Origin: a virus
Length of the DNA: 64,000 nucleotides
IMG/VR virus record: IMGVR_UViG_3300011271_000002
Span: 32,001-96,000 of that record
Direction: 5' to 3' (one strand)
The number at the start of each line of letters is the position of its first letter. Positions within the stretch are counted from its first letter, which is position 1. Positions 17,794-62,578 of this stretch are shown in pieces. The notes beneath the pieces are model-generated. The model was not told the DNA's origin. It saw only the letters and a list, made by a program, of their open reading frames with translations, and did no database searches. The translations under genes and the position numbers were made by a program.

Positions 17794-17933
17794 TAGATCG
17801 CCGCCTTTATTTTTTCAGAACAGGGCTTGCCACGCCAGGCATAATCGATCCGCGATTGGGTAAAATAGAAACGGGCCGCGACGAAGTTCATAGCTTCGTG
17901 CAGCCCTGACCGATGCGACCGATAGGGAGTCAC

Positions 17934-18335
17934 ATGGCTACCACCAATACTAAGGGACCAGAGCCGAATAGTGGCTGTTGGCTGTGGACTGGCATGCTCA
18001 AGGATAGCGGCTACGGAAAGATTCAAACCGGCACGTTCGCCAACCCCAACATGCAGCGGGCGCATCGCGTTGCCTACGAATTGTTCGTTGGCCCAATACC
18101 TCCCGGACTGCAACTTGACCATCTTTGCCGGGTTTCTAGTTGCGTCAATCCGAATCATCTGGAGCCGGTCACTAATGCAGAGAACACAAGACGCGGAATC
18201 GCAGGACAGTGGCAGAAAAACAAAACACATTGCCCACAGGGTCATGAATACACAATTGAAAATACCATGATGTATTTGGGAAAGTGGAGGCGCTGCCGAA
18301 CATGCAGCAGAGAGCGTAATCATCTTGCCGCTTGA
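17934..18335 (+). CDS. Free-standing HNH homing endonuclease (antisense insertion)
   Basis: GCWLWTG, AHRVAYE, LDHLCR..CVNPNHLE, KTHCPQGHEY; GGGAG SD. Confidence 0.9.
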   Translation: MATTNTKGPEPNSGCWLWTGMLKDSGYGKIQTGTFANPNMQRAHRVAYELFVGPIPPGLQLDHLCRVSSCVNPNHLEPVTNAENTRRGIAGQWQKNKTHCPQGHEYTIENTMMYLGKWRRCRTCSRERNHLAA

Positions 18336-18340
18336 CGAGC

Positions 18341-18796
18341 TCACGGAATCACCATGCTAGTTGAACCCTGCGGGAATTGCTCCCTTACGGTCTGTGCCAA
18401 AGAGTCGGCAAATGCGGCTATGGCCCGTTCCGCTGAACTATCAAACGCCACTCTCATAAAAGGGTGTGGAGCGATCATCCCCTCCGCTTTTTTTCCCGGC
18501 TTGTGGCCGATCATGCGATGCCCGTATTCCACCCACAGCGCGCGCTGGCCCATTTTGCCATAGCCGATTCTGGCCAAGCCGCCGCGGAGTTGATTGTCGA
18601 GAGTGATCTCCATCATCCGCGCTGCCTTGAGTTTCCCTTCGCGGACCGGTTCTCTGATGTTGAGCTCGCGATTGATTTCCTGCGCGCCGGCGTTCAGTGC
18701 TTTAAGGAAACCAGTGGCCACGATGATCTTGGGTGCCTCGCGTAGCATCTTGCAGACATCCTCGATGCCGATGATCCGCGAGACCTCGCCAGCCAT
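18341..18796 (-). CDS. HK97 gp10-like tail completion protein
   Basis: PVREGKLK, WVEYGH, PHPFMRVAFD motifs. Confidence 0.85.
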   Translation of the reverse strand: MAGEVSRIIGIEDVCKMLREAPKIIVATGFLKALNAGAQEINRELNIREPVREGKLKAARMMEITLDNQLRGGLARIGYGKMGQRALWVEYGHRMIGHKPGKKAEGMIAPHPFMRVAFDSSAERAIAAFADSLAQTVREQFPQGSTSMVIP

Positions 18797-18805
18797 GAGT
18801 TAATC

Positions 18806-19294
18806 TTAGCCGCTTGCGGCAGCTTCGACCGGCAATGCTTCCGGGTTGGGCGTTGGTGACGCGGGCGGCGGCACTTCCGCAGTCGCAGGCTCGGGCGTTG
18901 GCTGTGACGGGGAAGGATTAAGCAGTTCGTCCAGGCTTTTCGGCTCGTTGCCCATCGAGACATTGTAGGCGTTTGCCAGGGCGGCCATCGCGATCCCGAG
19001 CCGATCGACGCGCAGCAGCTTGCCGGTTTCCTTGAGCGAATCTTTCTTGCTCAATCCAGGGAAAGCCGCCTCAGGCCCAGCTTCCAGCGCGGCGAAGAAA
19101 AGCCCGCGCAATTCCGCAGCCGTGATGCCGCCGCCCTCGCCCGTGATGCGGAGCAGCGCACTGAAAAGATTGCAACCGCAGATTTCCTCTACGTCCACGA
19201 TGGTGTTGAAATCGTAGGCGAGCGTCAGTTCCTCGGCATCGTCGTCGTCAAACTTGAATCGATAGTATTTCAGATCGTCTTTCGGTTGTGGCAT
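18806..19294 (-). CDS. Tail assembly chaperone (G-like)
   Basis: LTLAYDFNTIVDVEEICG..ELRGLFFAAL; between the tail tube and tape measure genes. Confidence 0.65.
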   Translation of the reverse strand: MPQPKDDLKYYRFKFDDDDAEELTLAYDFNTIVDVEEICGCNLFSALLRITGEGGGITAAELRGLFFAALEAGPEAAFPGLSKKDSLKETGKLLRVDRLGIAMAALANAYNVSMGNEPKSLDELLNPSPSQPTPEPATAEVPPPASPTPNPEALPVEAAASG

Positions 19295-19298
19295 GTGT

Positions 19299-19967
19299 TC
19301 ACCCTTGTTTTCTAAACTGCGCAAAATGTCTCATCAGGTATTCGCCAGTGATCGGCTGCTCACGCTGCTTGGCCCAGGGATGCAGCATGAAGGCGTCGGC
19401 ACGCAACGGCTCCTTCGGGGCCAATTGGCTGTAGTTCGCGTTGTTGGCGATGACCATCCCAAACATCAGTTCCCATTGTCGTAGATTTTCAATGTGCCGG
19501 CGCAGAAGTGCCTGAAGAAGTTTGGGCGTCAGATCAAGCCATTCGCGATCAGTGAGGCGAAGATTCTCGTGGGCCATCGCCCAAGCTTCTGGCCAACTCA
19601 ACGATTTGGCCTGTTTCGCGGATTCGCCTTCATCGGCATTTTCCGAATCTTCTTCCTCGTTTCTCTCTGGCATCGAGGCCTGCCAGGCTCTGAAAAGGAT
19701 GTTCCTGACATTCATCACGTTCCCGAGATGAAGGATTTCGCCGGCAGCCCGAATCGAACAATCAGCGCCAACGTGGGTAAGAATTTCGAAAAGCACGCTG
19801 CGGAGCGTTTTAGCCGCTGGGCGGACAAGGTTCAGATTTCCTGCCAAGACGTCCAGGCCGGTGCTGCTTTCAAGTTTCAACAGAAGCTCGTGCGTGAAGA
19901 GAATTCGCCAGCGTCGGCCGCCGAAAGGCAATTCGATCACCGGGCTGAGAATTTCGGCTATCGTCAC
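19299..19967 (-). CDS. Tail assembly chaperone (G-T-like, single ORF)
   Basis: G-like N-domain, acidic linker, T-like LRLTDREWLDLTP segment. Confidence 0.65.
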   Translation of the reverse strand: MTIAEILSPVIELPFGGRRWRILFTHELLLKLESSTGLDVLAGNLNLVRPAAKTLRSVLFEILTHVGADCSIRAAGEILHLGNVMNVRNILFRAWQASMPERNEEEDSENADEGESAKQAKSLSWPEAWAMAHENLRLTDREWLDLTPKLLQALLRRHIENLRQWELMFGMVIANNANYSQLAPKEPLRADAFMLHPWAKQREQPITGEYLMRHFAQFRKQG

Positions 19968-19976
19968 ATGGAGCGA

Positions 19977-20420
19977 TTAGACGACTGTTTCGGTAATGGT
20001 CCCGCTGATTTGGACATCGGCCATATATTCGATGGCCTTGTTTTGTTCGAATGGGCCGTTCTCGTACTTGGCAATATAGCCGATGCCGGTGCATGTGTAA
20101 ACCTTGCTGCCCTTATCCACCGGCGCGGTAATCTTCCACGAAAAAACTGTTTGGGCTTGGGCGAGCGCCAGGAGACTCAACTGCGAGGTGTCCCCGATGA
20201 AATTTCCAGCGATTGAATTCAGGCCAGGCTTGATTAGTCCGGGAATGAATTCCTCCGTTGCGTTCGGAGAAAGCAGATGCGTCGTATCTACCTGCGGAAC
20301 ACTCACCTGCGCAGGCTTGATACTTTTCACCTCAAGCATCGCATTGTAGCTGCCAGGACTGGCTACAGTGCCAATGTAAAATACCGCTGTGTTGCCAGTG
20401 TTGGCGCGAGATGCTGCCAT
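19977..20420 (-). CDS. Major tail tube protein
   Basis: VDTTHLLS..EEFIPGL..PG, C-terminal VQISG; GGAG SD. Confidence 0.88.
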   Translation of the reverse strand: MAASRANTGNTAVFYIGTVASPGSYNAMLEVKSIKPAQVSVPQVDTTHLLSPNATEEFIPGLIKPGLNSIAGNFIGDTSQLSLLALAQAQTVFSWKITAPVDKGSKVYTCTGIGYIAKYENGPFEQNKAIEYMADVQISGTITETVV

Positions 20421-20490
20421 GACATTCTCCTTGTCTTTGGGACTTCTAGCTACCCATCATATCCCTAAAAGCAAATCTGCGTGTAAATGT

Positions 20491-20898
20491 TTAATTCGCC
20501 TGATTGAACCAGATCTCGTATTCGATCATCCGGCGAAAGGTTCGGCTGGCATCGTCATAGGGGAAATCCATCGGTTCTTGTTCCATCAGGCAGCTTTGCA
20601 CGAACGTGGAATCTGGGTCCGATAGCGTCCCCCTGAAATTGTTCAACACTACGTCAATGGCGCTGGCGAGAGTGATCGTGCCCGCCTGATCGTAAGCGTA
20701 GCAATCTATCTGTAGACGCCGATGCCTTGGTCCTCGTTCGCCAGCCAGCGTGTGATCGGGCGTTCCTCCAACATAGAGATAGGTCCAACTGGGCAGCACC
20801 ATATCCTTTGGCAACTGGCCCAGGAAGCCTCCGCTGGCAGCGATCGCGGCCACGGCCGGCGTTCCCTGTACCAGCACGCTGATGCCTTGATCTATCAA
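20491..20898 (-). CDS. Tail terminator / completion protein (DUF3168-like)
   Basis: RLQIDCYA..LASAIDVVL..YDDASRTFR; TTG start overlapping the GT stop. Confidence 0.82.
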   Translation of the reverse strand: MIDQGISVLVQGTPAVAAIAASGGFLGQLPKDMVLPSWTYLYVGGTPDHTLAGERGPRHRRLQIDCYAYDQAGTITLASAIDVVLNNFRGTLSDPDSTFVQSCLMEQEPMDFPYDDASRTFRRMIEYEIWFNQAN

Positions 20899-21635
20899 CC
20901 CACAAGGATATCATTGGATTTCTTCACCCACTGATGCGTGCGCACCAATTCCTCATATTGTTGATGCCAGTTCATTGCCCGTTCGGCAGGATCGTAGCGG
21001 GCTATCCGCTCCTGCAATACCTTTCGGGCGCCCTGAACACTACCGCGGATTGGGTAGTGTTTGAGAACGAAGCGCTCCGGATAGACATGCATTCCGGGGA
21101 ATGTCGCGATATGCCCGCCGCTGGAAGTGAGATTGACTCGCTGAGTGTTTCGCCAAGCCTTAACGTGATGAAGCTTCGAATCCAGATGGTCAAGAGTGAA
21201 GCTTTGGAAGTGACGCTCGGGATCACCTGTATACAGATCATCGGTCGGGTAGAATTGCAAAACCTGATGATCCACTGCGTTATAGCCGGCCGCCTGGACC
21301 CGCACGAAGGCGTCCTTCAGTGATTCATCAGGCACGGGACTTTTCCGGATTTCATCGGCGTCGTGATGAATGCACCAGGATGCGGTTGATGCCGCCGCTA
21401 GTTCTTCCACGCGGGTCAACAGCGGCCGCCACGAGTAGTATTGCGAAGGCCCGTCGGCCGGAAACTTCTCGAAGCCGACCAGCGGAAACTCCCGCACGAG
21501 ATCGGGGCTTCCATCGGTGGACCAATTGTCGATCACGTAGACGCCGATGCCCTGATTGATCAGATGTTGGATCGTGAAAACAATTATGTCGGCCTCGTTA
21601 AAACAAGTCATGAACGCTGCGACGGAAAACTTCAT
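20895..21635 (-). CDS. Glycosyltransferase family 2-like
   Basis: FNEADII..H..VIDNWSTDGS, HHDADE (DxD); ATGA-coupled start at MKFSVAAF. Confidence 0.85.
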   Translation of the reverse strand: MKFSVAAFMTCFNEADIIVFTIQHLINQGIGVYVIDNWSTDGSPDLVREFPLVGFEKFPADGPSQYYSWRPLLTRVEELAAASTASWCIHHDADEIRKSPVPDESLKDAFVRVQAAGYNAVDHQVLQFYPTDDLYTGDPERHFQSFTLDHLDSKLHHVKAWRNTQRVNLTSSGGHIATFPGMHVYPERFVLKHYPIRGSVQGARKVLQERIARYDPAERAMNWHQQYEELVRTHQWVKKSNDILVG

Positions 21636-22492
21636 GATTTTGTGTCGCTGCCACTGGCGTTCTTTGCACACCACTCTCGCAGGCGCTGGGCCCAATGCTC
21701 CGCGTCTTCGCCCTTGAATGGAGATCGATACAATACGCAGTCCACCGCGTGATGCGCTCCGGGCTCCGGTTTCGGGCGGCCTGGCTGACAATGCAGGCAT
21801 CTGGTCCTGATGTCGTGAATCTTGCTCGCGCCGTGAATTATCGCATAACAGGGCAGTGCGTGCCATGGCCGGATTTGATTCCAGGCGTAGACGATTCTAA
21901 AATGCCGGGCAACCATGCTCTCGAATTCAGCCGGCGTGAAATCGTGCCGGTGATGCGGATTGGTCGCCATCGTCGGGACAATCGGAGTCGAGACAATCAA
22001 ATGCCGAGCTCGCCTGGCCATCATGGCCAGGAACTCTTCGGGATTTTCCAAATGTTCCAACACCTCAAACGCCATCGCCCCGTCAAACTCCTCGTCTTCC
22101 TCGAGCTGTTCGGGACGCAGGAAAGTTCCCAGCTTGCCAGGCCGCTGCCGGGCAAGGGTGAGCGCGGATTCAGATGTATCGACGGAAACGACATGGCAGC
22201 CCGCGCGGGTCAACATCTCCGAGCCATAACCGACCCCGCAACCAAAATCCAGAATGCGGCCGCCGGTGAAGCACTTCCGCGCGAATGCGTATCGTTCAAT
22301 ATGGGCGTTACGTTCCCACAGATCCGGGCAGCGATCCACGTCAAGGGCACCGCCATCCGGAAGTATCCAATCCAGCGTCGGCAGATCCTCTAAATGCCCC
22401 AGTCCGCCGAAGCGAGACCGGGGAACGCGCCCTCCACCCGGCGCGTGAATATCGACTACTAAATCTGATTGCCCCATATGTCCAGTCCCCAC
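21632..22492 (-). CDS. Class I SAM-dependent methyltransferase with C-terminal Cys/His segment
   Basis: HIERY, ILDFGCGVGYG, FEVLEHL, VSTP. Confidence 0.88.
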   Translation of the reverse strand: MGTGHMGQSDLVVDIHAPGGGRVPRSRFGGLGHLEDLPTLDWILPDGGALDVDRCPDLWERNAHIERYAFARKCFTGGRILDFGCGVGYGSEMLTRAGCHVVSVDTSESALTLARQRPGKLGTFLRPEQLEEDEEFDGAMAFEVLEHLENPEEFLAMMARRARHLIVSTPIVPTMATNPHHRHDFTPAEFESMVARHFRIVYAWNQIRPWHALPCYAIIHGASKIHDIRTRCLHCQPGRPKPEPGAHHAVDCVLYRSPFKGEDAEHWAQRLREWCAKNASGSDTKS

Positions 22493-23136
22493 TTGGCCTT
22501 GAATAGCTCATGGTTGGCGCTGTAATCGCCGGGGCTTCGCGGATCCCCGCGAAACGTGCTCGGCAGACTAAGATGATCCACAAATACGCCATCCAGAATA
22601 CCGAGCTTCAGTCCAGCCCGTCGAACCCGCAGGCAGTAGTCGTCGTCATCGCCGCCATAACCGACGAAGCGTTCATCTAACAGGCCAATTTTATTGATCG
22701 TGCGCCGCGGTATGAAAACACACACGAAGCAACAGACGCGCGGTTCCTCCCTCAGCCCGACGATTCCAGCAAGGGGATTTTGATTTGGATTGCCGACATT
22801 ATTCGTGGTGGCCGAAACGAGACCGTATTCTGGATGCTCCTGCGTCGCGCGCTGCATCGCCGCGAACCCACCGGAGCTTTTCAGGAGTGCGTCATCGTTG
22901 AGCAATACCACATCATCGCTGCCCGCGGATTCAATCCCGATGTTTACATTGCGAGCAAAAACGAAATCTGATTCCACGTCTCTAACGTCGAATCCGTCCG
23001 GGGGGATCCAGTCATTTCCTTTCGAGCGGTCCCATATCACAATGATCCGGGATGTTTCACCGGCCGCGCGGATGGCCGCGACGCAGGCGCGGAGATTGTT
23101 CTCTGTTCTCGAAGGAATGATGATTGAGAAATTCAA
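22459..23136 (-). CDS. Glycosyltransferase family 2
   Basis: FSIIIPS, FARNVNIG, VLLNDD, IGLLDERF.GYGGDDDDYCLR; probable TTG start at 23136. Confidence 0.88.
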   Translation of the reverse strand: MNFSIIIPSRTENNLRACVAAIRAAGETSRIIVIWDRSKGNDWIPPDGFDVRDVESDFVFARNVNIGIESAGSDDVVLLNDDALLKSSGGFAAMQRATQEHPEYGLVSATTNNVGNPNQNPLAGIVGLREEPRVCCFVCVFIPRRTINKIGLLDERFVGYGGDDDDYCLRVRRAGLKLGILDGVFVDHLSLPSTFRGDPRSPGDYSANHELFKAKWGLDIWGNQI

Positions 23137-23810
23137 TGTGGACTGTCTTGCCCTTTGGGCTCGAATCTCGCGCCCGGGGCCCGCCGCCAGAAGGAAAGAT
23201 ACCACAGCAAAAAGCATGCGCCAGCGATCCACATCAATTTCGTGCTGATCGCGCTGGTCGTCACGGAGAAGTAGGCGGCCGAATTCATCCACAGATACAC
23301 AGCCAGGATGATCGAATGCCTTCCTTCGATCTTCATGACATGATGCCGACGGACGGGCAGGAGACTCAACGCCGTGAGTCCGCACGCCAGAAAGCAATCG
23401 ACGCCAGCCCGAAGTGCATAGACGATTTCGAGCCACGATTCCGGCCAGCGCGTTTCGGCGTGAAGCTCCAAGAATATCCAGGTGCTGGCGAAGGCCGACG
23501 CGCCGAATACCAATATCATCGATTGAAGATGAAAGGGCGTCCGCAAATGCATCCTTCTGGCGGCTTCATAGGAAACGACTCCGCGGAAGGCGATCTGAAT
23601 CACCATCGCGGTAATGGCGAACCGAGCGTAGAATTTATTTCCAGCCCTGAATTCTGCTAGACCGAAGAGGATAACGCTGACGATGAGATCGAACAGTAGA
23701 TAGAGATAGAATTTCCCGTACAGTGATCGCCAGGATCGTACTTTCATAGTCAGCGCGAATTCCGCGAAGAGCGACAAGCCCCAGGCGAGAGCCAGATTCG
23801 GATCCATCAA
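23133..23810 (-). CDS. Polytopic (6-7 TM) membrane protein
   Basis: About seven hydrophobic segments over 225 aa. Confidence 0.7.
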   Translation of the reverse strand: MMDPNLALAWGLSLFAEFALTMKVRSWRSLYGKFYLYLLFDLIVSVILFGLAEFRAGNKFYARFAITAMVIQIAFRGVVSYEAARRMHLRTPFHLQSMILVFGASAFASTWIFLELHAETRWPESWLEIVYALRAGVDCFLACGLTALSLLPVRRHHVMKIEGRHSIILAVYLWMNSAAYFSVTTSAISTKLMWIAGACFLLWYLSFWRRAPGARFEPKGQDSPH

Positions 23811-23815
23811 AGAGT

Positions 23816-24025
23816 TTACTCCTTACTGGATGGACTTCCGCTCGGCGGATTTCGTTTCGCTGGCTTTTTACCCTTGGGCTTTTTGGCCTTTGGCGCCGGC
23901 ACCGGTTTCTTCACGGTGGCGTCCGGGCATGGTGGCTGATCTGGGCCGCAGGGAGGCGGGAAATCACCGCTCCCCATTTGCATCACTTGACTCGTCATCG
24001 CGTTGTCTCCTTTGCCTGATTTCAT
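23816..24025 (-). CDS. Small Pro/Cys/Lys-rich peptide (probable start MTSQ)
   Basis: AGGAG SD before MTSQ; GSGDFPPPCGPDQPPCP followed by a Lys-rich tail. Confidence 0.55.
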   Translation of the reverse strand: MKSGKGDNAMTSQVMQMGSGDFPPPCGPDQPPCPDATVKKPVPAPKAKKPKGKKPAKRNPPSGSPSSKE

Positions 24026-24218
24026 TTCTTACGAAATTAAGTGACTCGATGTAGGCTCCCATGAAATATCTTCCGTCTTTGGTTAGAAGCCAGTTCTTGG
24101 TACGCTTTTCCGCGCCGCCAGCCAACCAAATCGATAGCCAGCCGCTCACTACCGCGACCATCGTGATCACGCTTCCGATGGCCTGAATAGCGGCGCCGAA
24201 CGATTGCCCCTGCATCAC
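23964..24218 (-). CDS. Small membrane protein
   Basis: One hydrophobic helix; start uncertain. Confidence 0.45.
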   Translation of the reverse strand: MMQGQSFGAAIQAIGSVITMVAVVSGWLSIWLAGGAEKRTKNWLLTKDGRYFMGAYIESLNFVRNEIRQRRQRDDESSDANGER

Positions 24219-24285
24219 AATAATGACCGCCGAAATTAGATCTCATTAACGATACCATGAACGGAAAATATGATCGGACTTTTTA

Positions 24286-24489
24286 TCAGGGCTCATCCTC
24301 TAGTTGACTGATAAAGTTCAACTGCGAGATATCTTCCGAGAACGGGTCGCAGTCGTTGTCGTCCGGCCATTCGTCGATGGAGCCGGGAGCGTTCAGAAAG
24401 TCCGGGGCATCGGATCGTTCCTTGGGCGAGCTATCAAGCTTCACCGGCTTTCTTCCGGGCTTTCGCTTGGGGTCTGGCATGATTGTCAT
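24286..24489 (-). CDS. Hypothetical protein
   Basis: ATGA-coupled; basic N-terminus, acidic C-terminus. Confidence 0.45.
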   Translation of the reverse strand: MTIMPDPKRKPGRKPVKLDSSPKERSDAPDFLNAPGSIDEWPDDNDCDPFSEDISQLNFISQLEDEP

Positions 24490-26700: not shown

Positions 26701-27248
26701 TAGCCCTGCTCGGACATGAAATCCTCGGCGGACATGAAATCCTCGGCTTCGCTTGCGTTAATCATGGCGCAAGCTCTACATCCGCACTCGCCATCACACG
26801 TCTCATCGCATGATTCCGAACAGGTGCACTCCGGATCAACATCATCAACAGTAGGCGAACTGAGCGCAAAAGCCGGACCTGGCGCACGCTCGATAAGGAT
26901 TAACGGGCGCGGCGACTTCCGTTCGAGAGCCTGACGCGCCGCTTCCTCATTGCAGGGATTGATGGCGTAGAGCGCTCCTGGCGATAATAGTCTGGTCCTC
27001 GCTGGACTGGCGGCGCGTTTTACTTTGGACCCAGCCGGGCACCATTGCCGCAGGTCGTCATCCACGCTGCCATTCGCATATTCCGGAGCGGTGAGCACAA
27101 ATTCCCGCTCCGGAAGATCCGGCGTATCGACGCGAAACATGACCGCCTGACCATAGGCTTCCGTGGTGACGAAGCCGATTTCAATTTGACGGCCGAGAAG
27201 CTCAACTATAGCCCAACCCTCGAATTTATTTTGCAGATTCTCGTTCAT
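26700..27248 (-). CDS. Hypothetical phage protein
   Basis: WAIVELLG..IG..E..G...RVD.P; Cys-rich tail; 18-bp tandem duplication at 26711-26747. Confidence 0.7.
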   Translation of the reverse strand: MNENLQNKFEGWAIVELLGRQIEIGFVTTEAYGQAVMFRVDTPDLPEREFVLTAPEYANGSVDDDLRQWCPAGSKVKRAASPARTRLLSPGALYAINPCNEEAARQALERKSPRPLILIERAPGPAFALSSPTVDDVDPECTCSESCDETCDGECGCRACAMINASEAEDFMSAEDFMSEQG

Positions 27249-27895
27249 CCTCTCCTCCTGGACTGGCCAGAACATATTCTTCTGGCGGTGCTGAAATTTA
27301 CGCCGAACAAAGTCCCAAGAGCCACGTAGCTTAGTCCTTCTATTCGTTTCTCTTTTAGGCTCTGGATCTGGCGATGATCAAGCGTGGCGGCATGATGGTT
27401 TTCGCCGAAAGGCACATTCGGAATCCTAAGTCCAGTGCGATAGGCGTGCTTCAAATTATCTGATCGGGTCAGATACTCCAGATTCAACAATTTCGGATTG
27501 CCTTTATTGCCATCCTTGTGATTCACCTCGAGTCCTTCAGGTGCGGGGCCGAGGAAGGCGCTGGCGACCAGAACGTGGACTTGAAAGTTTGTCTCGTGAT
27601 TGTCCTTGGATAATTGAACCGCTAAATATTCCGCGCACCATCCCGGTACCAGTTTACGCATGCGTCCAGTGCGAGCATTTCTGACACGGCCCATGTCGCT
27701 GACTTCATAAAGTCCTTCAAAGTCAACGACTGGTTTCCAGCGCTCTAATGCCTCTGCCAGTTTTAACGCGTTCCAGTCCTCAATGATCTTCCTGGCGCTG
27801 CATTCTAGCCCATTCACACAGTTCATGCAGATTACTGAATCGTGAAGGCGGGCGAGTTCCAGCATAGACTCGCCGGCCCAGTCTCGCGGCTCCAT
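27245..27895 (-). CDS. NUMOD4-HNH homing endonuclease with N-terminal extension
   Basis: ERWKPVVDFEGLYEVSDMGRVR, VHVLVASAF, VNHKDGNKGN..LLNLEY. Confidence 0.88.
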   Translation of the reverse strand: MEPRDWAGESMLELARLHDSVICMNCVNGLECSARKIIEDWNALKLAEALERWKPVVDFEGLYEVSDMGRVRNARTGRMRKLVPGWCAEYLAVQLSKDNHETNFQVHVLVASAFLGPAPEGLEVNHKDGNKGNPKLLNLEYLTRSDNLKHAYRTGLRIPNVPFGENHHAATLDHRQIQSLKEKRIEGLSYVALGTLFGVNFSTARRICSGQSRRRG

Positions 27896-27897
27896 CG

Positions 27898-28440
27898 CTA
27901 AGCCTCGACTTCCGCCGTTTCGTTCTCGGCTTCGGTTTCCTCTGGGACGCTTTTCGATATCAGCCTCAATTGAGCTTCCGCTGCTTTCACGGCCGTCGCA
28001 TTGCCTGGCTGTATATCGCAATCGAATGGATCTTTTCTCATGGCGTGCATCGCCTGGTGCATGGCAGCGTCCTCGTCGATCATTGCGAAGTGAAAAGAAA
28101 TGAGACACTGCTCGTCGTTCTTGTGTTTTTTTACCACAAAGCTATCCACCTTCAACGAGCCGAATCTAAGTTCATTATCGATCTTGATTCGCCCATCCGT
28201 GGTCGCCTGTTTGGGGCGAATTATCAACGACGCCGCAACCATCTCCAAGTCAAGCCCCCAAGTTCGCACCTCGGCATCTTCTTCATTTCGGCGTTTGTAA
28301 ACCTCCTTGAGGCCCATCTGATCGGCCACCAGTTGATCGAATCGAGCGCTTACGGTTACGGTTGTAAGGCAGCTCGATCCCAATTTTAGCGTCGCGCCGC
28401 GAAAGTTCGCGTCAAGTAGTCTGATACGTTTTCTTGCCAT
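27898..28440 (-). CDS. Hypothetical protein
   Basis: AAGGAG SD. Confidence 0.65.
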   Translation of the reverse strand: MARKRIRLLDANFRGATLKLGSSCLTTVTVSARFDQLVADQMGLKEVYKRRNEEDAEVRTWGLDLEMVAASLIIRPKQATTDGRIKIDNELRFGSLKVDSFVVKKHKNDEQCLISFHFAMIDEDAAMHQAMHAMRKDPFDCDIQPGNATAVKAAEAQLRLISKSVPEETEAENETAEVEA

Positions 28441-28455
28441 GATTCTCCTTGGATT

Positions 28456-38361: not shown

Positions 38362-38982
38362 TCAAGCCGCCCTGGTTTTGGCTCTGATCCTATCGAGAGT
38401 CTTTTCAAAAGCCTCAATTAGATCTAGAAGTGTGTTGTACAGATCAGGCGAGGAGAAAAGTTCCAGTTCCGCCTGGACCTGTTCGCGGAGTTTCACTGAT
38501 CTCGATTCTTCGATCATTCGCGATCTCAAGGATTCGATCCGCAATCGGTCTTGATCGGATCGTTCCCATGCCCAATAAGCCCTGCCGTTTGGAGCGAAAA
38601 TATGACAAGCGAGACAGAGTGTCCGGAGACATCCAGGACGATTATCTCGCCAACTATTCACATGATGCACCTGAAAGGAGTCCGGATGTAAATGCTTCAA
38701 ATTCAGCGTTTGCGGACGAGCACATTTTCGGCATTGATAACCATCGCGTGCCAGAATCAATGGGCGAAGTTTACCGAATTCCGATTGATGTAAGGATGCT
38801 TTGTCGCGAGGCTGCTTCTTCTCGTTTATATATCTGGCGAGACTGGGCTTACAGGATCGATTTCTCTTAAGTTGTTGAAACAACTTAGTTAGGCATGATT
38901 TGCGGAAGCGCAAAAAGTGCTTAACGTTTACGGTCGAGCGTCGGCATTGTTTAGGGTCGATCAAGCCGTCGGCGATGCTCAT
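38362..38982 (-). CDS. HNH endonuclease (McrA-type motif)
   Basis: ILARDGYQCRKC..QVHH..N...LRTLCLACH. Confidence 0.75.
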   Translation of the reverse strand: MSIADGLIDPKQCRRSTVNVKHFLRFRKSCLTKLFQQLKRNRSCKPSLARYINEKKQPRDKASLHQSEFGKLRPLILARDGYQCRKCARPQTLNLKHLHPDSFQVHHVNSWRDNRPGCLRTLCLACHIFAPNGRAYWAWERSDQDRLRIESLRSRMIEESRSVKLREQVQAELELFSSPDLYNTLLDLIEAFEKTLDRIRAKTRAA

Positions 38983-55731: not shown

Positions 55732-56235
55732 TTAATGGAATTTTTTGTTACTCACTAGAGAGGCCATCAGCCCGATCCTGAGACCAGCCTCAAAGGACGC
55801 GGCGGCCTGCTGATGGATGAACATTCCGGCCGTCTTGCGCTGCTCAATAGTGAGAGTCCGAAATTGCTCTGACAACGCACTTCTCTGTTTTTCGACACAC
55901 TCGCCCCAATCATCGCCCCACAGCCGCTTCTTGGCGTAGTACAACACCCCGTAGGCTGCGAACTCACCGAATCCCTCGCAATGCAGTGCGGCCGCAATAG
56001 GCGCAAGTGATTTCGTATGGCGCTCCCGCTCGGATCTAGCGGCGGCTTCCTCGCGTTCTTTTGGATCAGTCGATTTACGGGACGGGCGCTTCTTTCCTTT
56101 CGCGCCCAACAATGCCGCATTCGGGCCGATCAATTCCTCAATCAGCGCAGAAGCTGCGGATCCCGGAACTCCAACTCCTGACCGCTGAAGCGCGTCCTTC
56201 ATCGCGTCATTGCGCCTGATTTGTGCTTTGTTCAT
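55732..56235 (-). CDS. Hypothetical protein
   Basis: ATGA-coupled to the upstream RHH gene. Confidence 0.6.
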   Translation of the reverse strand: MNKAQIRRNDAMKDALQRSGVGVPGSAASALIEELIGPNAALLGAKGKKRPSRKSTDPKEREEAAARSERERHTKSLAPIAAALHCEGFGEFAAYGVLYYAKKRLWGDDWGECVEKQRSALSEQFRTLTIEQRKTAGMFIHQQAAASFEAGLRIGLMASLVSNKKFH

Positions 56236-56375
56236 AATTTGGCTTTCAGCGCCCGCGCCATCAACACAAGAATCATCTGACTGCGATTGCGCGATTCGAG
56301 CTTAGCCGCCTGATCGAGCAGGCGAAGCAATTCGCGAGGAATACGAAGTGATACCGGCATACTGGGCGACGTCAT
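56232..56375 (-). CDS. CopG/RHH DNA-binding protein, 47 aa (not in ORF track)
   Basis: MTSPSMPVSLRIPRELLRLLDQAAKLESRNRSQMILVLMARALKAKL; promoter TTGCCT-18 nt-TACGAT-7 nt-ATG. Confidence 0.8.
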   Translation of the reverse strand: MTSPSMPVSLRIPRELLRLLDQAAKLESRNRSQMILVLMARALKAKL

Positions 56376-56453
56376 ACAGTACATCGTAAGACAACGCATG
56401 GCAAAAAGGCAAGGGGCGGTGGTGCTGAATGAACGAATGAACTATGTGTTAAC

Positions 56454-56494
56454 GTAGTTCGAAGGGGTTCGAACACCCCCCCCACTCGAACTAC
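56454..56494. repeat. Nested inverted repeat
   Basis: GTAGTTCGA...TCGAACTAC flanking GGGG-TTCGAA-CACCCC. Confidence 0.75.
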
Positions 56495-56519
56495 ATTTCA
56501 CGCAGTATCAAGGCGACTT

Positions 56520-56816
56520 TCACGGCAGGCTCTCCCAGAACGCTTCGAAGCGCTCTGCAGTCAGCCCGCCGGTCGCCGGGTAGAGTAGAACGCGGTCCTT
56601 CGAATGAAACACGCACTGACCAGCCGAATTGAAGATCTGCACCTCGCGGCCTCGCCTGATGTCGTCGCGCACGAAGGCCCGCTCAAGTCCCGAGATTATC
56701 TCGACCGCGCGGTCGGTTGGCGTGCGCCGCGTGTAGCTCGTGCCGACAGGCCTGTCCGAGTTCTCGTGAAAGGTCAAGACAGTGAGGCGGCCGGCGCGTG
56801 AGTCGCTATAGGTCAC
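56520..56816 (-). CDS. Hypothetical protein
   Basis: GTGA-coupled. Confidence 0.55.
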   Translation of the reverse strand: MTYSDSRAGRLTVLTFHENSDRPVGTSYTRRTPTDRAVEIISGLERAFVRDDIRRGREVQIFNSAGQCVFHSKDRVLLYPATGGLTAERFEAFWESLP

Positions 56817-57217
56817 TGCTTACGCCGACTTGCCCATCTAGCCGAACACATTCCTTTATGTTGAGCCGGGGCGCCACACGAACATGGAGGGCGGGGAATA
56901 TACTTTCCGAGCAATTTGTAAACATGACAAATTCTTCGACGCGATAAACCAGAGAGGCGCGCCGCTTCATAAAAGCCAACGCCGGCCCGATAGAGAGGCA
57001 GAACATCGATAGCGCATGCAAACAGATTCCGTCTGACGTACCGGGCATTCTGGATGTACGTTTTTCCACAATACGCGCATCGATATCTTTGCCTATGGCC
57101 GTATTTTCTGGTCTTGTGAAATCCAATCTTCCAGAAATGATGAGTGCAGTTGGACCCGAAGCGAGCGGACTCAAGGCGATGCAGCAATTGCTGCTTGTGC
57201 TGCTGATCTAACTCCAA
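56813..57217 (-). CDS. InsA-like Zn-ribbon/HTH protein (paralogue of 39788-40264)
   Basis: GHRQRYRCAYCGKTY, GVGFYEAARLSGLS, CSCG...H.GMC. Confidence 0.6.
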   Translation of the reverse strand: MELDQQHKQQLLHRLESARFGSNCTHHFWKIGFHKTRKYGHRQRYRCAYCGKTYIQNARYVRRNLFACAIDVLPLYRAGVGFYEAARLSGLSRRRICHVYKLLGKYIPRPPCSCGAPAQHKGMCSARWASRRKQ

Positions 57218-57390
57218 TTAAATTTCCAATCCGTCTGGTGATCCCGATACGGCGCCTCCTTATCGCAGTTGGTCTGTCTCGGCCTGGTGGTCACCGGACT
57301 ATTTTAGACGCTTGATCCAGCAAGTAGTCCAGCCCGACAATGGTGCGCGGAATTCTACGGCCTCGGAAAAGTTTACGGGCTCGTAAAAAT

Positions 57391-57621
57391 TTAACCGTCA
57401 TTGTCGGTGGCGACTCCCAGCGACTTCAGCACGGCCCTGCAGGCGTCCTGAAACTGGCTCGTCGCTGCCTGATCGGGCAGGTACATCAGTCCATCAACAG
57501 GAGCGACTGGCAGCCCTTCCGCCTTCGCTTGGTCCACGAGCTTGGAGAAAGCGCATTCGGTTGCGAAATTGACCTTGCTCGCATCGCTCTTTTTTGGTTT
57601 TGCCACATTGATTGTTCCCAT
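57391..57621 (-). CDS. Hypothetical protein
   Basis: GGAG SD. Confidence 0.55.
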   Translation of the reverse strand: MGTINVAKPKKSDASKVNFATECAFSKLVDQAKAEGLPVAPVDGLMYLPDQAATSQFQDACRAVLKSLGVATDNDG

Positions 57622-57647
57622 GTATAATCTCCGTTAGGTCAAATTTT

Positions 57648-57869
57648 TCACTGAGCGTCTATAAAATCCAACTTTCCTAGAGCATTGCGACGCAGCGATC
57701 CGAGCATCTCATTTTGATGTTTCCAGATAGGATCCGGTATTCGCCTGGGCCATACGTTAGCGAAATTAAGACCAAGCTCATCGGCTACTTTCCGTCCCTG
57801 TTCGATGCTGCGAATTGTCTTCTGCCCCGGCTCTCCATTTCCGCAACGTCCACTCCATTCCATCCACAT
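57648..57869 (-). CDS. Hypothetical protein
   Basis: ORF in the operon. Confidence 0.45.
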   Translation of the reverse strand: MWMEWSGRCGNGEPGQKTIRSIEQGRKVADELGLNFANVWPRRIPDPIWKHQNEMLGSLRRNALGKLDFIDAQ

Positions 57870-57875
57870 ATAAAG

Positions 57876-58163
57876 TCAATCCCAGTCCGGAATCTCCACC
57901 GTCTGCCCGGCGAGTTTATGCCAGCAGTCCGATAGAAATTGGATCCGCCCGTCAGTCACGAACGAGTGGCAGCGCCGCGCCGGATCATCGCCGTCGCATA
58001 GCAGTGACGGGTTGAATGTCGGCTTGTCGAAGGAGCCGTTCCAGGTCCATCGCGGTACATGAAAGCCGTGGCCGCGCTCGCAGCCTGGGCAATGAAAGAC
58101 ATACAGCGTCTGCACGCCTTGATTACCGGTGTCGCCAGTGCCCGCCTCGTGAATCTTCGCCAT
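57876..58163 (-). CDS. DUF6527-like Zn-binding protein
   Basis: FHCPGC..GH..WTWNG...PTF.PS...RCHSFVTDGRIQFL.DC.H.LAGQTV. Confidence 0.8.
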   Translation of the reverse strand: MAKIHEAGTGDTGNQGVQTLYVFHCPGCERGHGFHVPRWTWNGSFDKPTFNPSLLCDGDDPARRCHSFVTDGRIQFLSDCWHKLAGQTVEIPDWD

Positions 58164-58164
58164 A

Positions 58165-58386
58165 TCACTCCACCCGCACGAGATCCCGCAACGCCTCTAC
58201 CAACGAATCGCGCAGTGCCGCGTGGTCCGCTGGCGAAAGCCGGTCATCGGCTGAAAGGGCAATCGGCTCGAAGCGGCCCTCAAGATTTACGCGGCCCGTG
58301 ATATTTGCTTCGTGAATGCGCGAAGGAAGGATACGACGGCCGGAATTGTCGCAATGCGGTTCGTCGATTGTCGAATCGTGGCTCAT
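58165..58386 (-). CDS. Hypothetical protein
   Basis: ATGA-coupled start MSHD. Confidence 0.5.
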   Translation of the reverse strand: MSHDSTIDEPHCDNSGRRILPSRIHEANITGRVNLEGRFEPIALSADDRLSPADHAALRDSLVEALRDLVRVE

Positions 58387-58778
58387 TTGCTTTTTAGGCC
58401 AAACAAAAAACGCACTCCGATGATAACGCAGATCGCGCACACGAGGCGTCCGGATATCAGCCAGGCTTCGTATTCGGTGGTGGGCACGATAGTTTTTTGC
58501 AGATCGGCAAGCGAGCCAATAGCAACACTGACTTGATTGTAGGTGAGCTGTTGACGTATCAGCTCTATTTTCGATTTGATCAGATTGCCAGAAGGACGAT
58601 ACTGCATCGCGATGATCGCGGTGATTCGCTCGATCATCATTCCAGAAAGCACCCAACAGAAACCGGCGGCAAGATCGCCGCGATCTTTAACCCGGAAGAT
58701 CCTCCAGACGCCGGCGGCGCAGAACACAATCTCGCTGGCCAATATTAGCAAAAGCAAAACTACAATCGGCCCTCTCAT
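58383..58778 (-). CDS. Three-TM membrane protein (possible lysis accessory)
   Basis: Hydrophobic segments; ATGA-coupled start MRGP. Confidence 0.6.
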   Translation of the reverse strand: MRGPIVVLLLLILASEIVFCAAGVWRIFRVKDRGDLAAGFCWVLSGMMIERITAIIAMQYRPSGNLIKSKIELIRQQLTYNQVSVAIGSLADLQKTIVPTTEYEAWLISGRLVCAICVIIGVRFLFGLKSK

Positions 58779-59236
58779 ATGTGCCCGCCATTGGTCGCAA
58801 TTCGCAAGAGAAGGCCAAGGATAGACACGGCGGCCGCCCACAACAAATAAGTCTTCAATTCAATTCCAGCGATAGTCACTTTCTGCTGCGTCTCCTCTTT
58901 TGCCGTGATTCTCTGCGTCTCCGCGTCAACCATCAATTGCGCGATCTGGCGATCCTTGGCATCCAGCTTCGTCTCGAACCCTTGGGCCGCGATCTTCCCT
59001 GTTATTTCGGCGTTCTGGCGGGAAACTGCCGCCTCGACATTCATTACCTTCTCCTTGATGTCGGAAGAAACCTTAGCCTGCTCTTCGAATTTTAAGCGGA
59101 TAGCCTTCGCATCTTCTTCCCGCTTTTTCGCATCCTCCTCTTGCCTTTGCGCGATGGTATCCAGCCGTTTGTCTAAGCCGGCCAGCGTGCCGTGCAGTTG
59201 GTCGAGGGACGATTTATCGAGATCACGGCCTGCCAG
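58775..59236 (-). CDS. Coiled-coil protein with C-terminal TM anchor; probable CTG start
   Basis: The frame is open 64 codons upstream of the ORF-track start, up to GAGGAG-5 nt-CTG: MAGRDLDKSSLDQLHGTLAGLDKRLD... Confidence 0.65.
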   Translation of the reverse strand: MAGRDLDKSSLDQLHGTLAGLDKRLDTIAQRQEEDAKKREEDAKAIRLKFEEQAKVSSDIKEKVMNVEAAVSRQNAEITGKIAAQGFETKLDAKDRQIAQLMVDAETQRITAKEETQQKVTIAGIELKTYLLWAAAVSILGLLLRIATNGGHI

Positions 59237-59329
59237 ATAGACTCCTCGTCCAACGTCGAACGGCTTGGACTACTTCCTATTTTCGCATGGGCTTCCAGCC
59301 AGCCCGCGCCAGTTCAAGTAGCCCCTGGT

Positions 59330-60034
59330 TCAAGTAGCCGCTGTCTTCGCCGCTATCGCCTCATCGAGCTTCGCTGCAGTGATGGGCTCCTTTGAAGGCA
59401 ACGATGGTGGTCTGTGTCCACGGCGAGGGCTGGAAGTCAGCGCAAGTTCGATAGTCCACCCACGGGAAAGTCTCCTCCTCACAGTAGATTGATTGAGCGA
59501 CGTCTTCTCAATCATGCTAACAAAAACATCGGTCTCGCCGCGAAAGCTAACGTACACATTTGTACAAGCGTTGCGCATTTGCTGGGACTGGGTCGCCCAA
59601 CGGACGTTTCCGGGCTCGTAGTTCCCATCGTTGTTCGGGAATCGGTCAAGCGAATGCTGTTTGCTCGGTCGTTTGCCAACATCGGCCAGAAAGTTCGGGA
59701 AAGAATGTAGCCATCTTTCGCATACGTTAATTCCGCGCCCACCGTAGCGGTCATAGTGTTTATTTTTCGGGTTCAGGCATCTCTGCTTGATTCCCTTCCA
59801 GATCGTGTATTCTGTGGTTTCGATGCCGCCGTGCTTAGTTTTGTGCACACACCCGCACGAAACCGAAGATCCGTTTTCGATGTTGCCCGCTTGAACATCG
59901 CGAATCAAACCACAGATGCAGCGACATTTCCAATATAGCGGCGATCCGGGCGGTCTCGGTCTATCCGCCGGCCCCTCAATGAACCAATGGTTAACCCATT
60001 GTCCCGTTCTGTTTGGTAATCTGTGGTAGGCCAT
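59330..60034 (-). CDS. Free-standing HNH-like homing endonuclease
   Basis: WKCRCICG, SCGC, EY.IW..IKQRC.NP...YGGRGI.VC.RW, HSLDR.NN.G.YEPGNVRWAT; AGGAGG SD. Confidence 0.88.
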   Translation of the reverse strand: MAYHRLPNRTGQWVNHWFIEGPADRPRPPGSPLYWKCRCICGLIRDVQAGNIENGSSVSCGCVHKTKHGGIETTEYTIWKGIKQRCLNPKNKHYDRYGGRGINVCERWLHSFPNFLADVGKRPSKQHSLDRFPNNDGNYEPGNVRWATQSQQMRNACTNVYVSFRGETDVFVSMIEKTSLNQSTVRRRLSRGWTIELALTSSPRRGHRPPSLPSKEPITAAKLDEAIAAKTAAT

Positions 60035-60107
60035 TTGATGAACCCTCCTACGGTTCTTCATGGTTGGTCTCGCGTTCTGTGTGAAGCAGTTCGCGAGACC
60101 GCTTCGT

Positions 60108-60410
60108 TTAGCTTATCAATTTTGAAGCGTTTTTGTCCGGAAAGATGGCGTTCGGGGCGGGAGCCTGATTCGCCTCGGCCAGCGCTTGCGGCGTTGACGG
60201 CACGCCGACATTTCCACCAGTCACGTTATGATCCTTCGCGAAAAACCCCAAAAGCGCAACCAGGATTGCCATCTGCACCTTGCCGTCATGCAGGATCGTG
60301 CCGACGTTGCCATCACCGCTAGCCTGAACGATGCCGAGTATTAGCGAGATCGCACCGAACGCAGTGGTCTTCCAATTCTTGATGATGGGGACAGGAATGT
60401 TGATCGTCAT
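60108..60410 (-). CDS. Putative holin (two TM)
   Basis: KNWKTT..G...I....; LLGFFAKD; AGGAG SD. Confidence 0.6.
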   Translation of the reverse strand: MTINIPVPIIKNWKTTAFGAISLILGIVQASGDGNVGTILHDGKVQMAILVALLGFFAKDHNVTGGNVGVPSTPQALAEANQAPAPNAIFPDKNASKLIS

Positions 60411-60527
60411 TCGACTATTGCTCCTTTTGGATCGGCTTGGACTCAGTCTACCGCGAATTGTTTGTGCTATGCTGCCTTCAACTGGCCGCGAGGCCAAATT
60501 CAAACGTTAGGGAGAACCAATCACTCA

Positions 60528-60584
60528 ATGAAGAACGCAACGAAGAAAAGTTCGAAGGCGGCGCCCGCAAGAAAGAAGAAGTAA
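60528..60584 (+). CDS. 18-aa basic micropeptide
   Basis: MKNATKKSSKAAPARKKK; upstream AGGGAG and TG-N-TATGCT. Confidence 0.4.
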   Translation: MKNATKKSSKAAPARKKK

Positions 60585-61048
60585 CGAGGCGCCCTGAGGG
60601 CTTGCAGTTGAATTAGGGTTCATGCAATCGGGCTGGAGAGATCTGGCCCATTTTTATGCCACTATACATGCGCGGCGTGCCGCCTGAGGCACTCTGGATC
60701 AACATGGGCAAACCGAGCAAGCCCGCGGGCACAGTGATCTTTCCAGGACCTCTGCCTAAAGGCACATGCAGGCACATGCAAGATTGCGCCGAGAGGCATT
60801 CTGTTCCGGAATTACAGGCCCGATTACGACGGGCCACTGGTCGATTGCTGGTTACGACACTGCGGCATATTCCAATCTGGCAGAAACGCTCGTGCTTCTT
60901 AGCTAAAAACAGCAACGGCCCCGATCGCTCGGAGCCGCGCTGCATCAGATTGAAAATCACTGTTAGCTCAGGCTTGTTTTCCGCGATAGAACTCCTTTCG
61001 TTCAAGGATGGTAACACTGCGTGGTAGGCTTACAGGAAAGGAGTCGCC

Positions 61049-62578
61049 ATGAAACTATTTACCGCCCCGTCTACGTGCGGGCCCAAGCGGAGTGCTCAGG
61101 CTTTTTTCGATAGTCCAACCCAAACGCAATCTACGATGCAACGCCCCGAGATTAATTCCGGAATGCCTCCCCCACTCGGGAAGGGTCTTGCTAATCCCGT
61201 CGATAGTAAAAACGTGCGCCAGCATACGCCTTGGGGCCGTCAGCGCCTTTTCCTGCGTCCATCCATGTCTCAGCCGCCTGATCAAAAACTTTCGATTGAC
61301 TCCAGTGGTTTTTGCCCACTCACTCGTACGCCTAGTCTCTCCGTTAAGCGTCACGAGAAGATCTGGAATCGCTCTGACGGGCTTCGGAGAAGTAGTGAGT
61401 GTCCGCTCTTCACTCCAGCCGCGAACAAGACGCCGCCGCAATGTAGCATCCTTTATTCCCGTCACTTCACACCATTCGGTCAGCGTTCTAGTAACTTCGC
61501 CAAGAGTCAAGAAAACAGTGGTGCGTTTGTTTCTTCCTTGCTCAAGCTTCGTTCCCCATTTGCAATTGTCGGGACTGTATGGGCCATTGTTGTTGACTCT
61601 CTCAATGCTGTGCTCAGGCGTTGGACGGGGACCCATATCGGCGAAAAAAGCGGCGAAATCGTGCCATCGTTCGCAGAGCGTGATGCCTCTCGCTCCATAG
61701 TTCTTAAAAGCTTTATTGCTCGGAGTTTCGCATCGGGATTTCATTTGATGCCACGCGCCATACTCTGGCCTATCGTGAAGTCCGTGGCGATGGTACGATA
61801 TCTTGGGCATCGGGGAAATTCATCCTTTTCTCGGTGCAATAGGGCCGCGCTGCTTACAACAGTAGCGACTCTGTGCATTTTAACAGGATTGTGCCCTACG
61901 ACAACGGCCCAAACGGTCACGGTACCAGTAAGAATTGTCTCAACCTTCGAATCGATCGGCACGCTTCGCGCTGTGACTAACGCGAAGAATATCGGCAAGC
62001 ACAATCTCAGCTTTTGTAACGATGGGCAATTTCCGGTCGATCTGCCGCCCGAGCGGATTCTCCAGGCCTTGCCGGATCTACCAATGCTCGACGTTGCGGA
62101 AGCGATTACCCTTATGCGCCTGGCCTACAGTCGCAATTGGAAATTCAGCATCGCCCGATATGCGGAATACGCTCTGATCATCGTGGGAGCCGTGGCTTCA
62201 GGTGGCGCGACCGCAGTTTTCGTAATCTCAGCCAAGGGGCTTTCTAAGATAATTGCCGCGATAGGAATCATGCACGTGGTCGGCGACAAGTTGAAAGGGG
62301 AAGTGCCTCCACTTGAGGACTTCGTTAAAAACGCGCTAATCGATACGATCCACCTTGGCCCGGCCGGCAGCATCAATCAATGCGCGCGTCGCGTCGCATT
62401 CACTGGAATTATACATGGGGTCCACGGCTACAATGTCGTGGTGCAGGTTCCAGTGGCGCCGGCGGCCGCGATTCGAGTTGCCGAAGTTGCACCAGCACCG
62501 GCACAGAAGCCGATCCAAGCCGAAGAGGTTCGCCAGCTCGTGGCTTCCGCGATGAGCCTGGCGCTGTTCAATAATTAA
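61049..62578 (+). CDS. Exported/membrane protein whose 5' region carries an in-register antisense HNH insertion
   Basis: Strong SD (AAGGAG) at MKLFT; frame stays open across the HNH gene; native-looking part starts about LCILTGLCPTTTAQ (61871). Confidence 0.6.
   Translation: MKLFTAPSTCGPKRSAQAFFDSPTQTQSTMQRPEINSGMPPPLGKGLANPVDSKNVRQHTPWGRQRLFLRPSMSQPPDQKLSIDSSGFCPLTRTPSLSVKRHEKIWNRSDGLRRSSECPLFTPAANKTPPQCSILYSRHFTPFGQRSSNFAKSQENSGAFVSSLLKLRSPFAIVGTVWAIVVDSLNAVLRRWTGTHIGEKSGEIVPSFAERDASRSIVLKSFIARSFASGFHLMPRAILWPIVKSVAMVRYLGHRGNSSFSRCNRAALLTTVATLCILTGLCPTTTAQTVTVPVRIVSTFESIGTLRAVTNAKNIGKHNLSFCNDGQFPVDLPPERILQALPDLPMLDVAEAITLMRLAYSRNWKFSIARYAEYALIIVGAVASGGATAVFVISAKGLSKIIAAIGIMHVVGDKLKGEVPPLEDFVKNALIDTIHLGPAGSINQCARRVAFTGIIHGVHGYNVVVQVPVAPAAAIRVAEVAPAPAQKPIQAEEVRQLVASAMSLALFNN
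61055..61810 (-). CDS. Free-standing HNH-like homing endonuclease with three C-terminal repeats
   Basis: EYGAWHQMKSRC, YGARGITLCERW, HSIERVNNNG.YSP.NC.W; 3x T..G.T.TL.EW....GI....L.RRL..GW..E..LT. Confidence 0.88.
   Translation of the reverse strand: MPKISYHRHGLHDRPEYGAWHQMKSRCETPSNKAFKNYGARGITLCERWHDFAAFFADMGPRPTPEHSIERVNNNGPYSPDNCKWGTKLEQGRNKRTTVFLTLGEVTRTLTEWCEVTGIKDATLRRRLVRGWSEERTLTTSPKPVRAIPDLLVTLNGETRRTSEWAKTTGVNRKFLIRRLRHGWTQEKALTAPRRMLAHVFTIDGISKTLPEWGRHSGINLGALHRRLRLGWTIEKSLSTPLGPARRRGGK

Follow-up and report, generated by a model that had tools for sequence, protein, structure and literature searches.

A recurrent structured element upstream of phage HNH endonuclease genes reads best as a putative antisense RNA gene

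Introduction

Homing endonucleases are selfish nucleases that need to be silenced to spare the phage carrying them, and the controls known from T4 are promoter choice, autorepression and sense-strand hairpins at the ribosome-binding site (RBS). Cis-antisense control of a transposase or of a nuclease-like toxin is known from RNA-OUT/RNA-IN of IS10/Tn10 and from SymR/SymE. In T4 homing-endonuclease genes (I-TevI, I-TevII, I-TevIII, segB, Aeh1 mobE) the RBS is sequestered by sense hairpins, and a promoter within the hairpin lets late transcripts escape; in phage 25 seg43, a stable hairpin lies just upstream of an unsequestered RBS (PMC2988022). The PeSLs of T4-like phages occur in many copies per genome, within hyperplastic regions and next to ORFan genes of many kinds, and their -35 boxes are clear (PMC2839356, PMC4122927). 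In cyanophage S-PM2, the antisense RNA CfrI, detected experimentally (Millard et al. 2010, summarised in PMC12197685), has its gene between psbA and that of F-CphI. Here we analysed a stretch of 64,000 nucleotides (nt), referred to as the window (bases 32001-96000 of a 104,422-bp IMG/VR phage record, IMGVR_UViG_3300011271_000002), for an element that precedes three of its HNH endonuclease genes (HNH1, HNH2 and HNH3, in cassettes H1, H2 and H3) and comprises a -10-like box, a GC-rich hairpin (hairpin 1) and the region of the Shine-Dalgarno sequence (SD) and start codon. This element was real, recurring before HNH genes in some twenty other phage contigs, and it reads best as a putative antisense RNA gene lying over the RBS of the nuclease.

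The locus resembled RNA-OUT and SymR in its predicted convergent promoters, a few tens of nucleotides apart, of which the antisense one would lie within the target open reading frame (ORF), close to its 5' end, in 19 of the 22 copies, and in that a short, stable antisense RNA would lie over the SD and start codon of a gene that is borne by a mobile element and potentially harmful; antisense stem-loops over the SD and AUG, followed by a tail, were obtained in all 20 copies folded. It differed in its targets (phage HNH homing endonucleases), in belonging to another sequence family, in having two hairpins, the second of which would double as a terminator with a tail overlapping the sense -10, and in being a computational prediction. 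CfrI is reportedly longer than the RNA predicted here and extends over the 3' end of psbA as well. It provides a precedent for an antisense reading, since it is an antisense RNA whose gene is physically linked to that of a free-standing homing endonuclease of a phage (PMC12197685). The T4 hairpins are alike in placing RNA structure around the RBS of a homing endonuclease, with a promoter right beside the hairpin, but here the RBS was outside the big hairpin and the promoter upstream of that hairpin, and selection appears to act on the antisense strand. The original prediction had invoked SD occlusion of the T4 type, which was not seen because the SD lies outside hairpin 1: this hairpin ended 22-37 nt before the ATG, and the -10 box was upstream of it and not inside. 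A stable hairpin enclosing the RBS with a late promoter inside was not found in the copies examined.

Results and Discussion

Recurrence of the element upstream of HNH genes

Eighty IMG/VR loci were retrieved for relatives of each HNH group. Hairpins upstream of HNH genes in general were mildly enriched (21-24% in the top decile), so that the module is a minority feature. A -10 box with a hairpin within the next 25 nt was present in the H2/H3 group at 9 of 79 loci and in the H1 group at 4 of 78 (2% of other ORFs), and several of these loci closely resembled H1 and H3. Three covariance models (CMs), R1 to R3, were built from hairpin 1 and a 12-nt tail only, with the SD and ATG excluded (three seeds in the case of R1), and scans of IMG/VR contigs with them found the element 15-35 nt upstream of further HNH ORFs of both subfamilies. 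R1 matched L124 (674-721, 23.8 bits), L132, L111, L058 and H1; R2 matched L006 (33.4 bits), L032/L043 (24.5 bits), L013 (24.3 bits) and L009 (17.9 bits); and R3 matched L219 (25.6 bits) and L220 (24.2 bits). All these named non-seed sense matches of at least 17.9 bits in HNH-anchored loci lay directly upstream of an HNH ORF. H1 scored 14.1 bits with R1, which was built without it (fourth in the window), and 43.3 bits with R3, of which it was a seed; H2 was a seed of every model, hence had no independent score, and reached 22.9 bits with R3.

Six further copies came from a pattern scan for the H1-type tail, in which the gene-start context (tail plus ATG) was part of the pattern. The collection comprised 22 copies before HNH ORFs and one solo copy, the element recurring in some twenty other uncultivated phage contigs, and whole-contig CM scans gave 1-3 copies per phage, nearly all of them at HNH genes. 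The proposal that a structured element travels with HNH genes of two subfamilies was borne out in this way, since copies recurred before both in other phages. Two of the places found had no HNH ORF after them. The solo copy (L212:1504-1537; contig G001, 21647-21695) had the -10 box, the hairpin and a TGACCA tail without an HNH ORF, about 68 nt from the stop codon of an oppositely oriented gp10-like tail gene, which matches the relative position of H1 in the window; it may represent a site that is empty or has decayed, or else a terminator of the phage backbone that the cassettes exploit. The other, L207, was a terminator-like hairpin between convergent genes; it scored 23 bits with R2, and R3, run on that contig at E <= 0.1, did not return it.

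In 185,579 species genomes, the H1-type pattern scan gave mostly chance matches, and only two contigs of Acidobacteriota metagenome-assembled genomes looked genuine: L234 (Candidatus Acidiferrum) and L285 (uncultured Acidobacteriota), the latter followed by an ORF of only 41 codons that was not obviously HNH. These two copies hint at Acidobacteriota hosts. Those cultured actinophages whose HNH_3 proteins came closest (CN1A, Courthouse, Minerva and Smoothie) lacked the element, and no published description of it was found in the literature searched.

Covariation and the structured strand

Alignments were made with MAFFT. In the sense alignment (A11), 12 of 13 pairs changed on both sides (score 0.386 vs. 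0.152 in shuffled alignments), and in the antisense alignment (A12) 18 of 23 did so (0.474 vs. 0.212); none of 500 shuffles scored as high in either. The paired cells of A12 amounted to 84.8% (70.0% when shuffled), and hairpin B, which is hairpin 1 read on the other strand, was 92-93% paired. No Rfam 15 family, including HEARO/IscB omega-RNA and the phage small RNA families, was found in the window at its gathering score, and when both strands of five member loci were scanned at E <= 1, only Mu-gpT-DE came up, near the L013 element (20.6 bits vs. a gathering score of 49, E 0.79). The original prediction had suggested a new structured RNA family: the hairpin covaried, and no described family was matched that would remove the novelty.

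Both hairpins were more stable on the strand opposite to the nuclease mRNA. As antisense, hairpin 1 was the more stable in 20 of 21 copies and had 38 G-U pairs (12 in sense); for the SD/ATG region this held in 19 of 20 copies, by a mean of 5.45 kcal/mol and with 58 G-U pairs (4 in sense). Thirty-seven other genes of the phage showed no strand bias (+0.56 kcal/mol, 17 of 37), so the asymmetry is not general to start regions; this control also ruled out a general composition effect as the source of the G-U asymmetry. Folded as antisense, all 20 copies, H3 included, shared one shape: a few unpaired nucleotides, hairpin A, 1-2 nt, hairpin B (13-15 bp) and a tail that was U-rich in about 16 of 22 copies. 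Hairpin A had 11-15 bp, began at the complement of AUGGC and carried the anti-SD (CUCC-like) in a 5-7-nt loop. The antisense z-scores were -5.27, -5.30 and -3.74 for H1, H2 and H3, compared with -2.81, -5.6 and -0.62 for the sense strand over the same comparison; H3 thus fits the element once read as antisense, where its fold is significant. The antisense strand therefore appears to be the one under selection, and the earlier view of a repressive leader on the sense strand was not sustained, folding energy and G-U pairs favouring antisense for both hairpins.

Promoters on the two strands

A TAnnnT hexamer on the antisense strand occupied ORF nt +13/+14 to +18/+19 (codons 5-7) in 19 of 22 copies, and began at +12 in H3. 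The background of this motif in the same ORFs was 0.66% per position (binomial P 2.6e-33, relatedness not corrected), and the residues encoded at the hexamer varied widely among copies. The hexamer was preceded by TGn in five copies. In H1 it was TAGTAT (17947-17952, - strand, ORF nt +14 to +19), with a predicted start 6-8 nt downstream, near 17939-17941; in H2 and H3 the extended -10 elements were TGg TAATCT (60014-60022, + strand, +13 to +18) and TGg TACGAT (61791-61799, + strand, +12 to +17). The -10 box said to head the cassette was itself conserved on the sense strand in most copies, and TAAAAT or its relatives were kept even where the complementary tail was a poor U-tract; both promoters therefore seem real and face each other. 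Given the G-U pairs, the folding energies and the conserved antisense -10-like hexamer, the element reads better as an antisense RNA gene, and an antisense role had been among the options of the original prediction.

Predicted antisense RNAs and proposed mechanism

Three antisense RNAs were predicted in the window. RNA 1 (about 80 nt, 17861-17941, - strand) would consist of hairpin A at 17938-17909, hairpin B at 17906-17873 and a U-rich tail at 17872-17861 (-33.9 vs. -27.2 kcal/mol for the sense strand). RNA 2 (about 85 nt, 60028-60112, + strand) would have hairpin A at about 60029-60065 with a CCUCCUA loop, hairpin B at 60066-60100 and a U-rich tail (-38.0 kcal/mol), and RNA 3 (about 80 nt, 61805-61884, + strand) hairpin A at 61807-61837 (12 bp), hairpin B at 61839-61874 and a tail at 61875-61884 (-29.3 vs. 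-17.2 kcal/mol in sense).

We lean towards the view that convergent promoters yield a cis-antisense RNA of 80-85 nt which masks the start site of the HNH gene. Each cassette would be a compact module spanning the 5' untranslated region and the first HNH codons. The antisense -10 in codons 5-7 (TAnnnT, often TGn-extended) would start the RNA at about +6, at the T of a conserved ATGGCT; as this start is 6-8 nt downstream of the hexamer, hairpin A would be the 5' end of the RNA. Hairpin A would be complementary to the region of the SD and start codon and would carry the anti-SD in its loop, and hairpin B with the U-rich tail would act like an intrinsic terminator. The sense -10 would be the complement of this tail, with the HNH mRNA starting at the foot of hairpin 1. 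Fully complementary to the translation-initiation region, the antisense RNA would pair with the mRNA, probably loop to loop first, and limit translation of the nuclease in the manner of RNA-OUT with the IS10 transposase and SymR with SymE.

Several points weigh against this reading. H3 was not detected by the CMs (below 7.7, 11.7 and 8.7 bits for R1, R2 and R3, respectively), so that its membership is by architecture alone, and some members were chosen by eye or by the pattern with ATG context, which builds in their link to gene starts. The E-values of the CMs are rough because the calibration was short, and the probabilities are upper bounds on significance because the members are related and not phylogenetically independent. 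In every cis-antisense pair the structure of one strand is mirrored on the other, about 6 of the 22 tails were poor U-tracts (read from A12), and the sense -10 was conserved in its own right, leaving room for a role of the sense leader. A convincing antisense -35 was present in hardly any copy (best 1-4 of 6), and the sigma-70 consensus may not be that of the host; when complete sigma-70 promoters, with both -35 and -10, were sought on the antisense strand, nothing consistent emerged, only the -10 being conserved. In H1 and H3 the antisense strand might be read as mRNA, because it holds one long open frame. The making of the RNA, its ends and the repression of translation are what we infer from the features described above.

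The open frame on the antisense strand was not confined to these two cassettes. Taken codon for codon against the HNH ORF, it was stop-free in 8 of 18 members: H1 (17793-18344, - strand), H3 (61049-62578, + strand), L124, L141, L013 (an ORF of 310 codons), L135, L189 and L191. These were mostly cassettes inverted with respect to their neighbours; the co-oriented H2, L132 and L111 had 4-13 stops. This pattern fits translation of the host operon through inverted inserts, by which termination at hairpin B would be overridden as well. More tentatively, the ~80-nt antisense RNA may represent an unnamed family serving as portable control of free-standing HNH homing-endonuclease cassettes in uncultivated, possibly Acidobacteriota, phages, swapped between unrelated subfamilies and silencing the nuclease at its start site, with its terminator overridden by operon translation across inverted cassettes.

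If true, an antisense module common to two HNH subfamilies would be a different layer of control travelling with the gene. It would also provide a handle for locating cassette boundaries in metagenomic phages, and a new, easily testable RNA family in a field in which few phage small RNAs are understood. It is a solid lead and not yet a result, being drawn from computation and concerning about 7% of the HNH loci sampled.

Alternative explanations

The model of the original prediction, a regulatory leader on the sense strand, would have the mRNA start from its own -10, with hairpin 1 at the 5' end as stabiliser or insulator; the ACCA tail would pair with AUGG, and a small hairpin with the SD in its loop or 3' arm would throttle translation, the antisense features being by-products. 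Most copies had a -10 (TAAAAT, TATAAT, TACAAT or TAGAAT) 3-8 nt before the hairpin, preceded by TGn in 6 of 21 (about 1.3 expected; counted by eye), and the inner SD stems varied in sequence among copies. Sense hairpins at the RBS of T4 homing endonucleases and the stable hairpin just upstream of the seg43 RBS in phage 25 (PMC2988022) are in line with such a leader. At least two of the four nucleotides of AUGG were paired in the sense minimum free energy (MFE) fold of all 20 copies, mostly with the CCA of the conserved ACCA tail, so a contribution at the sense level is possible. The sense folds were nevertheless weak (z -0.5 to -1.7 for most SD regions, -0.62 for the whole H3 leader), and the mismatches were mostly C-A or A-C, which correspond to G-U pairs in antisense (96 such pairs there vs. 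16 in sense). As this model also leaves the conserved AnnnTA at codons 5-7 unexplained, we regard it as rather unlikely. A composite promoter/terminator like the PeSLs, in which the hairpin and T-rich flank insulate the neighbours from backward transcription and act as a recombination site shuffling HNH genes, with no regulatory RNA, was judged quite unlikely. A PeSL consists of a sigma-70-like promoter and a stem-loop terminator, the stem-loop being placed just downstream of the -10 in one subclass (PMC2839356), and like the PeSLs the element is a compact promoter-plus-stem-loop module at mobile or accessory genes. One module headed two unrelated HNH subfamilies, about half of the cassettes were inverted with respect to their neighbours (from crude ORF calls), and the solo copy adjoined a gp10-like tail gene in a position matching H1. 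Many copies spread through plastic regions and flanking diverse ORFans were, however, not found in whole-record CM scans, which gave 1-3 copies per genome, almost only at HNH genes, and neither the structured, G-U-rich complement of the SD and ATG nor the fixed antisense -10 within the ORF is explained by a PeSL. The copy number, the specificity for HNH genes and the structured complement of the SD likewise disfavoured a plain backwards-facing terminator as well as a generic PeSL cassette.

Coincidence, that is, unrelated intergenic hairpins and AT-rich boxes, common in a phage of 55% G+C, was considered extremely improbable. Viewed from the window alone, the sense-strand evidence would have been weak. 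The -10-like boxes and GC-rich hairpins were present at the positions given for them: TAAAAT in H1 (17861-17866, + strand), 6 nt before hairpin 1 (17873-17906, + strand; -18.4 kcal/mol in sense, -20.3 in antisense) and also the complement of the antisense U-tract; TAAGCT in H2 (60110-60115, - strand), a weak match unflagged by the sigma-70 scan; and TAAAAT in H3, within a promoter-like site (61877-61904, - strand; TTGTCG-16 nt-TAAAAT, with TG before the -10). A sense -35 box was seen for H3, and a simple sigma-70 scan gave none for H1; the host may follow other promoter rules. Hairpins of -17 kcal/mol or lower occurred once per ~230 nt in this genome; those of H1 and H2 were in the top 6-11% of its upstream regions and that of H3 at the median. 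Against shuffled sequence, the leaders of H1 and H2 folded better than expected (z -2.4 and -5.0) and that of H3 did not (-1.05). The second hairpin touching the SD was small and weak on this strand, and in the form first described it appeared in the MFE fold of H2 but not in those of H1 and H3. The alleged similarity of the three loops was not significant, and the pairing said to be common to the three leaders was not recovered: with MAFFT and RNAalifold on the three leaders, or the three hairpins, alone, the leaders did not align and no consensus structure was obtained. Coincidence is countered by the independent CM matches upstream of HNH genes in other phages, by the covariation (0 of 500 shuffles as high) and by the fixed position of the antisense hexamer, and for H1 and H2 it is already contradicted.

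The phage and its HNH genes

The record had direct terminal repeats and 55.5% G+C, with tail and tape-measure-like genes in the window. No close relatives of the phage were found in IMG/VR or among GenBank phages (no DNA match in the latter), and none of the relatives of the HNH genes was near enough for direct comparison of leaders (identity up to 63% over short IMG/VR segments and up to 62% among 2796 homologues). The three HNH genes were real at their claimed places, as judged by Pfam or phrog matches. HNH1 (17934-18335, + strand) encoded an HNH_3-type homing endonuclease (Pfam HNH_3, E 9.6e-15; phrog_826, E 4.6e-51) and was inverted with respect to both adjoining tail genes (14842-17793 and 18341-18796, both on the - strand). 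HNH2 (59330-60034, - strand; phrog_374/3377 type) and HNH3 (61055-61810, - strand; phrog_3377 type, E 1.2e-67, with C-terminal helix-turn-helix-like repeats) formed a second ββα-Me group, with phrog_3377/374 matches of E 1e-42 to 1e-67, no Pfam match and 43% identity to each other.

The element was absent at three or more further HNH genes of the phage (genome 21672-22367, + strand, outside the window; window 27245-28108 and 38362-38982, both - strand). These leaderless HNH-type genes were one phrog_119, one NUMOD4/HNH_3-like and one HNH_3-like with a zinc-ribbon N-terminus, two of them without any intergenic spacer.

The gene upstream of HNH2 and co-oriented with it (60108-60503, - strand) encoded a small protein that contained a hydrophobic segment and matched no family; the gene had a good SD when read from an internal ATG, and its stop codon was 7 nt before the H2 hairpin 1. 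For a tRNA-Arg-like RNA suggested at 62580-62689, ARAGORN gave no tRNA between 62400 and 62900, and Rfam had no match at the gathering score anywhere in the window. About 120 nt downstream of the HNH3 stop there was a strong canonical intrinsic terminator (60915-60938, - strand; 10-bp stem and T-run), and the ORF at 60613-61017 (- strand) is probably spurious because this terminator falls within it. In the 56.6-kb phage contig bearing the L006 HNH cassette, a cluster of tRNA genes, comprising three tRNA matches and a weak tRNA-Sec-like one (L204:2138-2692), was located ~600-1150 nt downstream of the cassette.

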